Below are positions 7,799 through 13,260 of a DNA stretch of 36,824 nucleotides, piece after piece. A program made the position numbers and the translations under genes. The stretch is from a virus (Duplodnaviria > Heunggongvirae > Uroviricota > Caudoviricetes), in the IMG/VR virus record IMGVR_UViG_2585427781_000006; one strand, given 5' to 3'. Numbering within the stretch: the stretch's first letter is position 1; every line of letters starts with the position of its first letter. Under the pieces are notes generated by a model. That model saw only the letters and a program-made list of their open reading frames with translations, did not search any database and had not been told where the DNA came from.

Positions 7799-8249
7799 GA
7801 GTTTGGGCAACGAGTGAAATGAGGTGTAAGGTGGGCGGTCATTTTGATAAGTGATCGTCCACTTTGTGTCAGAACCTGATGTTTGTTGTACATTCGGACG
7901 AATAGGCGGCGTTGTTTGCTTTAAAAATAAAACAGGAACACTTTGAGAAAGTGAACAGGTGTATTTATTTGTTGCTGATGAATGAGAGTAACTCTAATTT
8001 GGATAATTAGCTTGATAATAGGTCAGACGAAAATAATATTCCAGCACACTTTTGGTCGCAACAGGCATTAGTTAATTTTAAGTGATAAATTTTTATCCAT
8101 AAATTAACACTAGTGTGTCATCTAGCGAAACCGAATCGCTTTAACTCATAACTTGAAGTTGAATCAGTGGGGTAGCAGTAGGCATGCCGGAACTGATAAA
8201 CTGTGCAGAAGGCTAAACATTCATTCACTCGTGAGATAGTAGCTAAATT

Positions 8250-9116
8250 ATGCAAAGAATTATTCCTGATAAAAATTGGTGGGAAAAAGAGCGTATTAAT
8301 CGTAAAGCATCATCAATATGCCCATATGCTAGTTCATACAGATGTCCTCGATACTATCAGAGTGTAGTTTTGCTCTCAAGCATCAATGTGATAGCTGGTA
8401 TGGCAACTAGGAAAGAAAAAGAGTTGGGCGAATTTTGGGAAAGAACCACTTTCTCATCTTTATGTGATGAAGAAGTCCCTACAGTTACTACAAAAGAATA
8501 TGGCGGCCTTGCATCAGTTAGTAATTTTTGCCCAGAAATATCATTTAGATATTTACACTACTACGCCGATTATATGTGTAAATATGTTGATGAGATAGAT
8601 CAGGACACTGGCAGGCGTATTGCGGAAAAAGATAATTTAGAAAATGATTGGAAATATACATGGATGTCAGTCAATCCTAAATTTTATTTAGATTGCGATG
8701 TTTTTGAAACTGTCAAAAATTTCAATGAAGAATTGGCTAGTGATTACTTAAAAAGATTGCACCCAAATATCGTTCAGCAAATAGATAGAATGAATAATTG
8801 CTTGGATAATAATGATCCGGCAGGTGCACTGCACGCAGCCTCTAATATTTTAGAAACTATGGCTAAGGAAATCACTCAAAACCCGAATGTGGCAAATGAG
8901 TCATTGGGTGGTTTTTTTAAACAGTTCGAAAAAATGTCAAAATTACCTAAGAATCTTATTGATGCTGTTAAAGATATTTATGATTTACGCAACAAATTAC
9001 CTACTGCTGGACACGGAAGCTTGAACAAGCCTGAATTGACTATGGTAGAAGCTATAACTATTGCGGCAATGACAAAGGCGATTTTAGAAATTGAATATCG
9101 AAGCAAAGCCATCTAA
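8250..9116 (+). CDS. Hypothetical accessory protein (AT-rich cargo gene)
   Basis: 288 aa ORF in a strongly AT-rich island. N-terminal Cys pairs (CPYASSYRCPRY). No catalytic motif recognised with confidence. Confidence 0.6.
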   Translation: MQRIIPDKNWWEKERINRKASSICPYASSYRCPRYYQSVVLLSSINVIAGMATRKEKELGEFWERTTFSSLCDEEVPTVTTKEYGGLASVSNFCPEISFRYLHYYADYMCKYVDEIDQDTGRRIAEKDNLENDWKYTWMSVNPKFYLDCDVFETVKNFNEELASDYLKRLHPNIVQQIDRMNNCLDNNDPAGALHAASNILETMAKEITQNPNVANESLGGFFKQFEKMSKLPKNLIDAVKDIYDLRNKLPTAGHGSLNKPELTMVEAITIAAMTKAILEIEYRSKAI

Positions 9117-9243
9117 CAAACCAAATTATGTGGTTCAAATTCCCGCTACACTTCTGTGTTGCCGCCAGCGTCTACTTATCGCTGTGAGTTCAACGGGTGA
9201 TGATGCGTTAGAGATCTCTGAATCGATTGAAGTCTAAGGTTGT

Positions 9244-9265
9244 CAGGGCTGTAACAGCAGCCCTG
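9244..9265. terminator. Perfect 8-bp hairpin between the convergent cargo genes
   Basis: cagggctg-taacag-cagccctg. No U-tract on either side. Confidence 0.3.
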
Positions 9266-9365
9266 TGTCATGAATGGATTGCATATTAATTGACGAAGAA
9301 CAGACTAATATCATCGATAGCTGTTTTCAAAAATAGACCAATAACAAACTGAGATGTTATCGTAT

Positions 9366-10019
9366 TCATTTCGATGATTGATCCAGATGTGTATATAACC
9401 ATTGAAAGAGTTTTCTAATTTTTGTGATAGTATCTTTTAAATAATTTAAGGAGATTATTATATTATTTTCATTGTTTAATGAAAGAGTAGGTGTTTTATC
9501 AATGATATTTTTTAAGGCTACAGCTGTGCTCATTTTTTTAATGTCTCCATTAGCATGAACTATGCAATTCCTTACTTTGTTAAACTCTGTCATGAATTGC
9601 CACTCTTGTGACAGGCCAAAGTTTATATCCATTAATTTTGTTAAATATCTTTTTGCTTTGTGGATGCCATCACCATTAAAATCGGTTACTGATATATTGG
9701 TGTTTACAATCCTTTGACATATATTGCAATAGTCGTTTAGGTTGTGCTCTAAGCATGAGTATAAAGATACCAAAGCAGATTTATTAAAAATATTTGGTTG
9801 TATGTTAACTAAGAAATCATATTGCTCTGAATAATAGTCTTCTAAGTAATTAATATAATCGTCAGGAGCATTCTTTTTTTCATCTTCATATGCTTTTTTT
9901 AATTCCGATAAGTCAACTCTGTTTTGGCCGCCTGCTCCTAGGATATATTTTTCGAAATCATCAATCTGCGCTTCAAGTGAATATCTTGATAGCTGTGCGA
10001 AAAGTTTGTATTTACTCAT
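9366..10019 (-). CDS. Hypothetical accessory protein with HEPN-like R-N-x3-H motif (candidate Abi-type RNase)
   Basis: 217 aa ORF in the AT-rich island. Motif KVRNCIVHANGD matches the canonical HEPN R-[N]-x3-H signature in spacing and context. Confidence 0.6.
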   Translation of the reverse strand: MSKYKLFAQLSRYSLEAQIDDFEKYILGAGGQNRVDLSELKKAYEDEKKNAPDDYINYLEDYYSEQYDFLVNIQPNIFNKSALVSLYSCLEHNLNDYCNICQRIVNTNISVTDFNGDGIHKAKRYLTKLMDINFGLSQEWQFMTEFNKVRNCIVHANGDIKKMSTAVALKNIIDKTPTLSLNNENNIIISLNYLKDTITKIRKLFQWLYTHLDQSSK

Positions 10020-10362
10020 CGGTATGCCATTCCTTTTTAATTATAAACCTTTGGGTTAAAAGGTGCTGAAAATAGTAACTCATTATTTTTGTTTGTAAAG
10101 GGGGTATTGTTTTTACTAGATCAAGATAAAACAATGGGAATATCCGCTTTTCGCTCACAGCGGACTTTCATCTTTGTAAACCCGTATGATTAGCTTTTCA
10201 GCGGTCATTCAGATACGGATTTACGCTTCCCTTGGCTGTGCATGACTATGACGCATGAGATCGCATGATCGTTAGAGGATCGTTTTTGCTGAGGCCAGCC
10301 AGAACTGGCGTGCTTTTGCTTATGTCGTGCAGGTGCATGAAAACCACTACATAAAGCGGGCA

Positions 10363-10381
10363 GGCGTGGCGGGGATACGAG
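10363..10381. other. Probable cos site (cohesive end region)
   Basis: GGCGTGGCGGGGA at 10363..10375 matches the first 13 nt of the 186 cohesive end as recalled (GGCGTGGCGGGGAAAGCAT; P2 GGCGAGGCGGGGAAAGCAC). Lies in a 500-bp non-coding GC-normal stretch. Confidence 0.45.
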
Positions 10382-10410
10382 CGCGCGCTAAGTCATATAA
10401 GAGTTATATA

Positions 10411-10439
10411 TTGATTTGATTGCTGGACATGCATACAGT
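10411..10439 (+). promoter_or_regulatory. Candidate promoter of the kinase/HIRAN operon (TTGATT-17-TACAGT) with degenerate LexA-like box
   Basis: -35 TTGATT 10411..10416, 17-nt spacer, -10 TACAGT 10434..10439. CTGG-N8-ACAG at 10423..10438 is one mismatch from the LexA box core. Shares the 13-mer ATGCATACAGTAT with the tum promoter region. Confidence 0.3.
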
Positions 10440-10533
10440 ATCGCTCTATCATCTAATAAATCTTAGAGTATTTGACAATGTTTGGATAAAATGGAACCTA
10501 ACTTATTCATAATCCGCTAAACAGGGATGTCAG

Positions 10534-11448
10534 ATGCCATACCAATTGGTAGAGCTTAGCCCCGTAGCTAACGATCTTGAACAGTTAGGAACCAAAGAGA
10601 AGTTTTGGTTCTATTTCTCCGATGACACTGTAAATTTGCAGTTGTTTAAGTACTCTAGGCCAGGTACTGGCGAGCATTGGTCTGAAAAGTGTGCTGCTGA
10701 GTTATGTCATTTGCTTAACATTCCACATGCTAGCTATGATTTGGCGCGATACAATGGTCGATTCGGTGTGGTGACTCAGAATATCATTCCATCTGGTTTC
10801 CGGATGGTAATGGGAAATGAAGTGCTTCACAGTTCGACATTCGATTATCCAGGGCCTTTACAAGCCGGGGAAAAGCCGGTAAGGGTCAGAGAACACACTG
10901 TCACAAGGGTATTGGGTTGTTTAGATAGGGAATCTATCAAGCCTCCTCCGAGTGTATATGATCTAACCGGGCTAAATGCAGCAGATGTATTTTGTGGATT
11001 TTTGATGCTCGATGCACTTGTGAGTAATCAAGATCGCCATCATGAAAATTGGGCGATCATGCTTAACAATGAAACTGGTGAGCAGTTTTTGTGTCCAACA
11101 TACGATCATGCCGCTAGTTTAGGAAGGGAGATGTTAGATGATGAGCGTAACGAACGGCTTAATACTAAAGATAAAAATCGACAAATCCCATGTTTTGTAA
11201 GAAAAGCTCGCTCTGAGCTATTCAAAGCAAAAACTGATAAAAAGCCCTTGCTGACCGTTGAAGCATTTCAACATGCAGTTGAAGGGAGAGTTGCCGCTCG
11301 CGACCATTGGTTAGGTAAGTTGAGCGTTTTAACAGAAGATTCCATTACAGATGTGTTTAACCAAGTGCCTTCATCGTGTATATCCGACAGTGCACGTAGA
11401 TTTGCAACGTTAATGGTAATGGAAAATCGCAGAAGGTTACTAGAATGA
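10534..11448 (+). CDS. HipA-family Ser/Thr kinase, short form (kinase core only)
   Basis: 304 aa. Gly-rich loop-like LGTKEKFWF near the N-terminus (compare HipA VAGAQEKT), catalytic loop SNQDRHHENWA (compare HipA TDGHAKNFS) and CPTYDHAAS (compare HipA TPFYDIIS). Lacks the HipA N-terminal domain. Confidence 0.7.
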   Translation: MPYQLVELSPVANDLEQLGTKEKFWFYFSDDTVNLQLFKYSRPGTGEHWSEKCAAELCHLLNIPHASYDLARYNGRFGVVTQNIIPSGFRMVMGNEVLHSSTFDYPGPLQAGEKPVRVREHTVTRVLGCLDRESIKPPPSVYDLTGLNAADVFCGFLMLDALVSNQDRHHENWAIMLNNETGEQFLCPTYDHAASLGREMLDDERNERLNTKDKNRQIPCFVRKARSELFKAKTDKKPLLTVEAFQHAVEGRVAARDHWLGKLSVLTEDSITDVFNQVPSSCISDSARRFATLMVMENRRRLLE

Positions 11449-12185
11449 CTAATACAAACTCCGTTTACGTCGCATGGCAGGCACCAGATACCAGAGACTG
11501 GCATGTTGTTGGTAACTTGCAAGAGCGCAAATCGGGGTATGTTTTCAGGTATACCAAAGGTGCTCTTAAATCTACTAAATTTACAAAGTTTAGCGGCATG
11601 AGTGATGTTCGTGAAACTTATGTTTCGGAAGAATTGTTTCCTCTTTTTAAAAATCGCCTTTTATCACCGAGACGTCCAGAGTATCCGAGTTTCATTAAAT
11701 GGCTTGGATTTGAAGAAGATAAGGTAAATCCTATCGATATTCTTGCTCGCTCGGGAGGCTTACGAAGCACTGATCAGCTGCAGATTTTCAAAAAAATTGA
11801 TGTTGATTCTGATGGTAACTTTGAGCATTTTTTCTTCTTACATGGACTTGGTTACTTAAATAGCTTAGCTAATGCTCGTGTATCTGAATTGAAACCGGGG
11901 CAAATTTTGCGTCTTTGCTTGGATCTTCAAAATGAATACGATGGGGATGCTGTTGTCGTTCGTGCAGATAAACCAGCTGAAATCGTTGGTTACTGCCCTA
12001 GGTATTTAAGTAATGATATCAAGAAGATGTTATTGGATGATCCAAAATCAATCACTTTAACGGTCGAAAAGATTAGCGATGATGCTCCTCATAACTATCG
12101 GTTATTATGTAAATTATCAGGAGTACTAAGCCAAGCCTGTCAATCGACGCTGATTCCTCAGGATGAGTTTGAACCTATTGAGTAA
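11445..12185 (+). CDS. HIRAN-domain protein with HipA-N-terminal-like (HipS-like) region
   Basis: 246 aa, start overlapping the kinase stop (ATGA). C-terminal LRLCLDLQNEYDGDAVVVRADKPAEIVGYCPRYLSNDIKKMLLD fits the HIRAN signature. N-terminal half shows the pattern of the HipA N-domain (LFKNRLLSPRRP ... PIDILARSGG versus HipA FFDNLLPDSP ... PFDLLSEIGRD). Confidence 0.6.
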   Translation: MTNTNSVYVAWQAPDTRDWHVVGNLQERKSGYVFRYTKGALKSTKFTKFSGMSDVRETYVSEELFPLFKNRLLSPRRPEYPSFIKWLGFEEDKVNPIDILARSGGLRSTDQLQIFKKIDVDSDGNFEHFFFLHGLGYLNSLANARVSELKPGQILRLCLDLQNEYDGDAVVVRADKPAEIVGYCPRYLSNDIKKMLLDDPKSITLTVEKISDDAPHNYRLLCKLSGVLSQACQSTLIPQDEFEPIE

Positions 12186-12191
12186 ATGAAG

Positions 12192-12215
12192 AAAAGCCAC
12201 CAAACGGTGGCTTTT
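12192..12215. terminator. Bidirectional intrinsic terminator between the HIRAN gene and the portal gene
   Basis: Perfect 10-bp stem aaaagccacc-aaac-ggtggctttt with T-rich flank; A/T runs on both strands. Confidence 0.6.
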
Positions 12216-12219
12216 CTTA

Positions 12220-13260
12220 TTATGGGACTATATCTAGCGAGTAGGTATTAAACTGTATCGCCTCCTTGCCAAGCCAATCATTCATCTCCTGTAATCGCTT
12301 TTGTAGTGGCATTAGCTCATTTCGGACGAATACACGGCTGGCCTTCTCCACATCCCCAAACCCCCCGACATTATTAGGCATTATCCCCATCATTTGTGGC
12401 GGCACACGATGCGCCGCCATCATGTCGTCCCGGCTCACGTTCTTGATATTCAGGAACTCATCCTTCGCCGCCACTTCTGACAACGGGATAATCTGAAGCC
12501 CGTCCTTTTTACCGTTAGGCGAGTACATAAACAGGTTACGGAAGTTACCAGGACCTTTGGCGCTTTTCATCGCATTGCGGAGGTTGTTCACATCCTCCTG
12601 GTTCTGCGCTGCATCGGTCATGTACATGATGAAGCCTGCATGACTGCCGTTAATGTAATACTTGCGGCGGAACAGCGTGGCGGACTCGTTGAGCAGAGCT
12701 GACGGAATGGCAGAAAGATAACCAGGCAGGCCGTAGATCTCCTGGTTGATGTCCGGTTCCATCAGATGAAAAATGTTGCCTTTCGTGAACTGATACGGCT
12801 GCGTAGTCATGCCGTATTGCACAAACCAGTAGGTATCAAGGTCTAACCCGCGTCGGGTGTATTTTGCCAGTGCAGGCTCAAGGGCGATAACTTCACCGAA
12901 GCGGTTCGTGCGTTTCTCCAGGTAGGCGTTACCAAAAACCAGATAGTCCTGTACAAAACGCGAAAAAGCCTGCTGGCTGAGCAGCGGGTGAGGGATGTAG
13001 GTGCTGGTCAGAATGTTGCACTTCACTGCAATCGGTGAGCTGTGATGCACGGCGGCGCGGAAGGTTCGCGCCAGTCCGTCGAAACTCACAGGCGGCTCGT
13101 ACCAACGATCCATCTGTACGCATTCCACATAGTCCAGCAGTTCGCGGCGGTCCAGAACAGGAACGGGATCACCGAAGCTGAATGCTTCGGCTGAAGTCTG
13201 GCTTTTATGCTGGATCTGTTTCGTCGACGCAGCGCGGTTCTTCTTACTCTTTCCCATCAA
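12220..13260 (-). CDS. Q: Portal protein gpQ
   Basis: 346 aa, size and position as in P2 Q (adjacent to the large terminase gene, divergent from the capsid operon). Confidence 0.88.
   Translation of the reverse strand: MMGKSKKNRAASTKQIQHKSQTSAEAFSFGDPVPVLDRRELLDYVECVQMDRWYEPPVSFDGLARTFRAAVHHSSPIAVKCNILTSTYIPHPLLSQQAFSRFVQDYLVFGNAYLEKRTNRFGEVIALEPALAKYTRRGLDLDTYWFVQYGMTTQPYQFTKGNIFHLMEPDINQEIYGLPGYLSAIPSALLNESATLFRRKYYINGSHAGFIMYMTDAAQNQEDVNNLRNAMKSAKGPGNFRNLFMYSPNGKKDGLQIIPLSEVAAKDEFLNIKNVSRDDMMAAHRVPPQMMGIMPNNVGGFGDVEKASRVFVRNELMPLQKRLQEMNDWLGKEAIQFNTYSLDIVP

Follow-up and report, generated by a model that had tools for sequence, protein, structure and literature searches.

The gene at positions 9366–10019 of the IMG/VR record IMGVR_UViG_2585427781_000006 (the window, meaning the whole stretch of 36,824 nt, to which all coordinates refer) is read here, with somewhat better than even confidence, as encoding a stand-alone ribonuclease of the HEPN superfamily. 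It would be an AT-rich moron, complete in itself and driven by its own promoter, at the cargo hotspot near cos in a P2-like prophage, and a candidate for abortive infection. The gene and its predicted active site are:

9366–10019, minus strand: coding sequence of the 217-residue solo HEPN-family protein (WP_000049685-type); open reading frame with an ATG start
9543–9578, minus strand: codons for KVRNCIVHANGD (residues 148–159), the predicted catalytic R150-N151-x3-H155 HEPN motif; assigned by conservation and falling within the PADLOC RTasHEPN match

The 217-residue protein is very probably homologous to the HEPN superfamily. The only PADLOC profile that it matches is RTasHEPN (PDLC03820; E = 1.1e-5, residues 122–164), which also matches 77 of 86 relatives (best 1e-10). 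The Pfam family HEPN_RiboL-PSP (PF18735) matches 14 of these 86 at E < 0.01, the best at 3e-7; it gives no match to the protein itself at E <= 1, and relatives scored individually reach 16–19 bits, under the gathering threshold of 28.4 bits. UniRef names some copies from E. coli and E. marmotae 'RiboL-PSP-HEPN domain-containing'. We lean slightly towards placing the protein in a RiboL-PSP-like or reverse transcriptase (RT)-associated-HEPN-like clade of the superfamily. Searches of PDB sequences by phmmer and profile returned no match. A structure predicted with AF2 from an alignment of 16 sequences (pLDDT 88.5, pTM 0.82) is all-helical apart from one beta-hairpin, and in a fold test it proved to be an alpha-helical up-down bundle resembling solved HEPN domains. 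Its top 50 structural matches include 1ylm, 1jog, 2pbe, 3l0i and 3c8g, all structures of the HEPN superfamily (Anantharaman et al. 2013), with the caveat that designed helical bundles score similarly to these against the model. A search of BFVD returned one uncharacterised Myoviridae protein. An earlier note on this DNA, made from the sequence, had taken the protein for one of HEPN type, and this interpretation is supported.

That note had also pointed to an R-N-x3-H motif of HEPN type in the protein, and the motif stands: R150-N-C-I-V-H155 is the sole Rx4-6H, with asparagine following the arginine. By itself the bare RNxxxH pattern is not beyond chance, occurring twice among the 21,192 residues of the window's open frames of at least 100 residues, the second copy clearly by chance. 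This stray copy, together with a non-significant Foldseek search of the PDB, favours a protein that is helical and non-catalytic and in which the motif is incidental. We nevertheless consider the motif real, because R150 and H155 are conserved across 86 diverse homologues; in the alignment of these representatives, which share 20–35% identity with the query, they are the only invariant columns, and N151, G158, E91, C98, Y125 and W140 are at least 90% conserved. An incidental motif is, in our estimate, extremely improbable. The N-terminal ~70 residues are poorly conserved among the 86 homologues and may form a sensing or regulatory region.

The family is large. A word-index homology search found 32 close relatives only; an exhaustive search with a hidden Markov model made from those relatives, once aligned, recovered 3,972 clusters (50% identity; E <= 1e-3), of which 1,710 had E <= 1e-10, with members almost always 200–250 residues long. 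As to rarity, the description of the gene as an 'orphan' was therefore mistaken. Distant members too are annotated as 'hypothetical', the UniRef name being given to some copies. Using the close-family alignment to search for related loci yielded 8 genome and 6 viral loci, and hundreds of E. coli contigs carry proteins 100% identical to the one in the window. In one 29.5-kb record of strain O25b:H4 (NZ_CP015088.1), a 1-nt insertion splits the open reading frame into residues 1–78 and 78–217, which could be a sequencing error or a real inactivation; the chromosomal copy of the same strain is intact.

The gene moves as a single-gene unit, with the following extent:

9286–10165, minus strand: mobile single-gene cassette of 880 bp, comprising promoter region, coding sequence and 80 bp of 3' flank; defined by nucleotide similarity to an Enterobacter copy

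This cassette has 83% nucleotide similarity to the solitary Enterobacter copy and contains no second conserved open reading frame; the stretch shared with another P2-like phage is 9308–10019. Homologues of 61–82% identity are lone AT-rich genes (29–32% GC) at four other sites in phages and in an integrative and conjugative element (ICE). In a Morganella P2-like prophage the gene occupies the Z/fun hotspot of P2, flanked by tail-fibre assembly and sheath genes, in the other P2-like phage between the baseplate V and tail-completion genes, in Salmonella and Enterobacter lambdoid prophages at the tail-fibre end, and in Pantoea within an ICE. Because these close homologues are solitary at such sites, the gene is mobile and probably acts alone, and the comparisons favour a self-sufficient gene. 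Distant members of the family are found on a variety of plasmids and in one Bacillus phage, with no recurring neighbour. In that phage (vB_BteM-A9Y, 13441–14049 of the record) the relative is flanked by the genes for an HNH endonuclease and the small terminase subunit, so that here too it adjoins the packaging region.

Profile scans of the window's proteins found no RT, MNT or DUF262 gene in the hotspot, and no Rfam RNA, tandem repeat or repeat array, sought as a type III-style antitoxin or non-coding RNA, was found in the window. The suggestion of the earlier note that the gene has no evident partner and could work singly thus largely holds, though it left unmentioned a convergent AbiJ-like neighbour (8250–9116), discussed below. 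The same data bear on the proposal that the gene is an addiction or toxin module, stabilising the prophage or the cassette with the help of an unrecognised antitoxin (a small open reading frame, antisense RNA or host factor), and is not primarily a phage sensor. This is quite improbable: neither MNT nor any other conserved neighbour recurs in ~20 contexts, the window holds no Rfam match or repeat array, and the cassette encodes nothing else that is conserved.

The region upstream of the gene contains several candidate expression signals:

10030–10035, minus strand: Shine-Dalgarno-like AAGGAA, 10 nt 5' of the ATG; found by sequence inspection
10072–10099, minus strand: sigma-70-like promoter candidate TTTACA-16-TACTAT (9/12); found by consensus scan
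10106–10135, no strand assigned: 30-bp palindrome (ATTGTTTTTACTAGA/TCAAGATAAAACAAT) immediately 5' of the candidate -35; found by repeat search

AAGGAAT is retained in the Enterobacter and Morganella cassettes, the candidate promoter region is conserved with the Enterobacter cassette, and the palindrome, largely kept in Enterobacter, may be an operator for the gene. All three signals are candidates, judged from the nucleotide sequence.

The prophage in the window is P2-like and comes from E. coli; its integrase, cI, replication gene A and DinI are followed by a cargo region, then portal Q and terminase P, and then capsid, tail and lysis genes. The gene has a GC content of 30.1%, against 50.9% for the window and 52–53% for A and Q, the core genes that flank it. 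The gene's start has a cos-like sequence 344 bp upstream, GGCGTGGCGGGG at 10363:

10363–10381, plus strand: cos-like sequence GGCGTGGCGGGGATACGAG, context outside the gene; found by pattern match

We take this sequence to resemble the 186/P2 cohesive end. It is enclosed in a 250-bp block (10139–10388) that is 93–97% identical in ~640 E. coli records of P2-like prophages, regardless of the flanking cargo. The low GC content and the cos-like site within a conserved block agree with the earlier description of an AT-rich gene on the replication-gene side of a probable cos. The cos divides the cargo: the replication side carries the AbiJ-like gene (8250–9116, plus strand) and the HEPN gene, and the portal side a HipA-like kinase (304 residues) and a HIRAN protein (246 residues), encoded at 10534–12185 on the plus strand with a 4-nt overlap. 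The kinase/HIRAN pair had been assigned to the same hotspot; it does share the one cargo region, but lies across cos from the HEPN gene. The pair matches the A and B components of the PADLOC candidate PDC-M03 (E = 1e-121 and 3e-93) and occurs commonly in P2-like prophages of E. coli. The cargo of window positions 7900–12300, compared with that of other prophages, has been swapped independently on either side of the conserved cos block; in one record this same block stands between a restriction endonuclease and retron Ec67. The window's own combination of cargo was found in no complete E. coli genome, and IMG/VR UViG_2585427762_000006 is 100% identical to the window across the hotspot. A megablast search of the phage collection gave no match.

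Experiments have established the A-to-Q cos region of P2-like phages as a hotspot of anti-phage genes (PMC9122126; PMC9519451), and the gene is a plausible, unsurprising cargo for it. Like P2 old/tin and the other cargo of this locus (Rousset 2022; Vassallo 2022), which are AT-rich, swappable exclusion genes expressed in the lysogen, it occupies the A–Q (cos) hotspot, and it would share their lifestyle, but its protein is unrelated to theirs. An anti-phage role has support from context, namely the hotspot and the defence-type neighbours (the AbiJ-like protein and PDC-M03). The ribonuclease might instead serve the phage itself, by host shut-off, by processing of phage transcripts or by counter-defence against RNA components of host immunity. 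Such a role would fit a gene that is phage-borne at several sites and has a relative adjoining the terminase small subunit in Bacillus phage vB_BteM-A9Y. Against it, the family is also carried by non-phage elements (an ICE and many plasmids), the gene is transcribed opposite to the surrounding late and replication genes, and it sits at loci known for lysogen-expressed exclusion genes; we regard this explanation as having only a small chance of being correct.

The neighbour on the replication side raises the question of whether the HEPN gene has a partner:

8250–9116, plus strand: convergent neighbour, an AbiJ-like protein of 288 residues carrying an Abi_C HEPN at its C-terminus (LRNKLPTAGHG); sub-threshold match to Pfam Abi_C at E = 0.0017

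The protein consists of a Cys-rich N-terminal region and a C-terminal Abi_C-type HEPN in which RNKLPTAGHG forms an Rx7H motif; its cluster representative P0182 carries PF14355. Its own family spans Enterobacterales, Vibrio, Shewanella and Pseudomonas, and comparison of the alignments of the HEPN and AbiJ-like families by hhalign revealed no relationship at the profile level. The two proteins could form a two-HEPN system in which one senses or restrains and the other executes. Eight E. coli lambdoid prophages share 7900–9349, which comprises the 288-residue gene with an in-frame stop and the first 64 bp of the 3' end of the HEPN cassette; an ancestral pair thus passed between phage types before the HEPN gene was deleted, and the AbiJ-like gene is nonsense-mutated where the HEPN gene was lost. 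At two Bacillales loci (B. toyonensis and Priestia) a member of the HEPN family likewise lies within two genes of an Abi_C protein. In its broader form, this proposal would make AbiJ-like (Abi_C) and solo HEPN families a recurrent cross-phylum partnership, one gating or complementing the other, whose two genes travel together between phages of the P2-like and lambdoid types. It would explain the constant pairing in E. coli, the stop codon in the AbiJ-like gene of prophages that lost the HEPN gene, and the co-localisation in Bacillales; we think this broader form doubtful.

A two-HEPN system with the convergent gene is itself rather unlikely. The HEPN homologues of 61–82% identity are solitary at five sites, and homologues of the 288-residue protein (44–87% identity) in Salmonella, Shewanella, Serratia and E. 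coli NCTC9064 (there in a defence island) have no such HEPN gene beside them. Among metagenome loci with Bacillales Abi_C proteins, one of five has a HEPN neighbour, and that one shares 99% identity with the protein of B. toyonensis. Gene order and orientation vary between lineages, and in evolutionary terms the E. coli pairing counts as one or two events. We rejected an obligate link to Abi_C proteins, as four Bacillales Abi_C homologues of 46–62% identity have no HEPN neighbour. We conclude that the HEPN and AbiJ-like genes are separable systems that are often co-localised. In a Salmonella prophage (L012, 3181–3879), the 87%-identical copy of the AbiJ-like gene immediately follows, on its downstream side, the gene of a DUF4145 protein, a member of a further HEPN family; this is a second case of this AbiJ-like gene beside a different solo HEPN.

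The closest working analogue of the 217-residue protein is HepS of the Salmonella Gifsy-1 prophage (STM14_3211; PDB 9oik), a solo HEPN abortive-infection protein of 218 residues that has no partner (PMC13043305). HepS is non-toxic at rest, forming a tetramer with a buried active site, and is activated by a phage tail-tip protein to cut tRNA anticodon loops (PMC13043305). The protein described here is outside the HepS family: phmmer and profile searches of the PDB, which includes 9oik, detected no sequence similarity between the two, the HepS motif is R100-H105 whereas that of the query lies 50 residues later, a difference in architecture, and the two also come from different loci and types of host phage.

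The nearest curated sequence family is PF18735, judging by its matches to 14 of the 86 relatives and the UniRef name. RiboL-PSP-HEPN proteins are RN-type Rx4H HEPNs distantly related to AbiD/AbiF (Anantharaman et al. 2013), and they include PD-T4-2_B of the validated PD-T4-2 system. The query differs in lacking an L-PSP fusion and, in the window, a DUF262/ParB partner. PD-T4-2 itself, in which a DUF262/ParB-like protein accompanies the HEPN, does not describe the locus, as no DUF262 was found in the hotspot. In a Planctomycetes metagenome-assembled genome (L023, 1392–2723), a GmrSD_N/DUF262 protein lies upstream of a distant relative, a layout resembling that of PD-T4-2.

The best profile match is the RT-associated HEPN of UG/Abi RT systems (PDLC03820; UG22 of Mestre et al. 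2022). UG22 systems have an adjacent RT, whereas the neighbours here are the AbiJ-like protein, the HipA-like kinase and the HIRAN protein. No RVT families were found among the scanned neighbours of relatives. A reverse-transcriptase partner (DRT) was rejected, there being no RT in the hotspot or in ~20 homologue contexts, so that PADLOC would report no DRT system here. Compared with HEPN-MNT type II/VII toxins (SO_3166, PDB 5yep; 7ae2; 8xdj), to which it has 6–15% identity, the protein has ~80 more residues, a helical extension at its N-terminus and a beta-hairpin; these toxins need a cognate MNT gene, and none is present in the hotspot or in the contexts of the homologues.

The following mechanism is proposed as the most likely one. 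The gene would be expressed in the lysogen and its product held as an inactive homo-oligomer until a component of a superinfecting phage activates it. The active protein would then cleave cellular RNA (tRNA, mRNA or rRNA) through a composite R150/H155 site, so that translation halts and the infection aborts. Ribonuclease activity, auto-inhibition, trigger-dependence and an anti-phage role are thus predictions for this protein.

Several points weigh against the reading of the gene as a stand-alone HEPN ribonuclease with a defensive role. Searches of the protein against Pfam, NCBIfam and PHROGs gave no meaningful match, and the best Foldseek hit of the model in the PDB has an E-value of 0.49. 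Sigma-70-like sites are no more numerous than expected from shuffled sequence, which leaves the promoter a candidate. In each of the 10 E. coli records from complete genomes, and in every IMG/VR copy, the 288-residue gene adjoins the HEPN gene, which leaves room for cooperation. In the hotspot census of Rousset (2022), WP_000049685 is listed as 'hypothetical' only and was not cloned, and the other 'Putative HEPN' P2 gene of that screen (pFR103) is among the 'additional tested systems', not the validated ones. No experimental study of the family was found in the literature searched. The pFR103 gene was also considered as the same gene and rejected, as it encodes a different protein. In the parts searched of the DefensePredictor and Vassallo supplements, neither the sequence nor the accession of the HEPN gene was found, and the texts searched contain no paper or validated system covering the family.

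The hotspot and the solo HEPN kind are already known, so the locus holds little surprise for a specialist. It also clearly displays how cargo to the left and right of the P2 cos site is exchanged independently. Close variants occur in different phages, which would make a trigger and an RNA target directly testable. If the gene proves protective, it would be a compact one-gene HEPN immune module of 880 bp, representing ~4,000 clusters now annotated as hypothetical. It would also provide a second family, unrelated to HepS but similar in behaviour, and would thereby support partner-less, trigger-gated HEPN ribonucleases as a common strategy of prophages.
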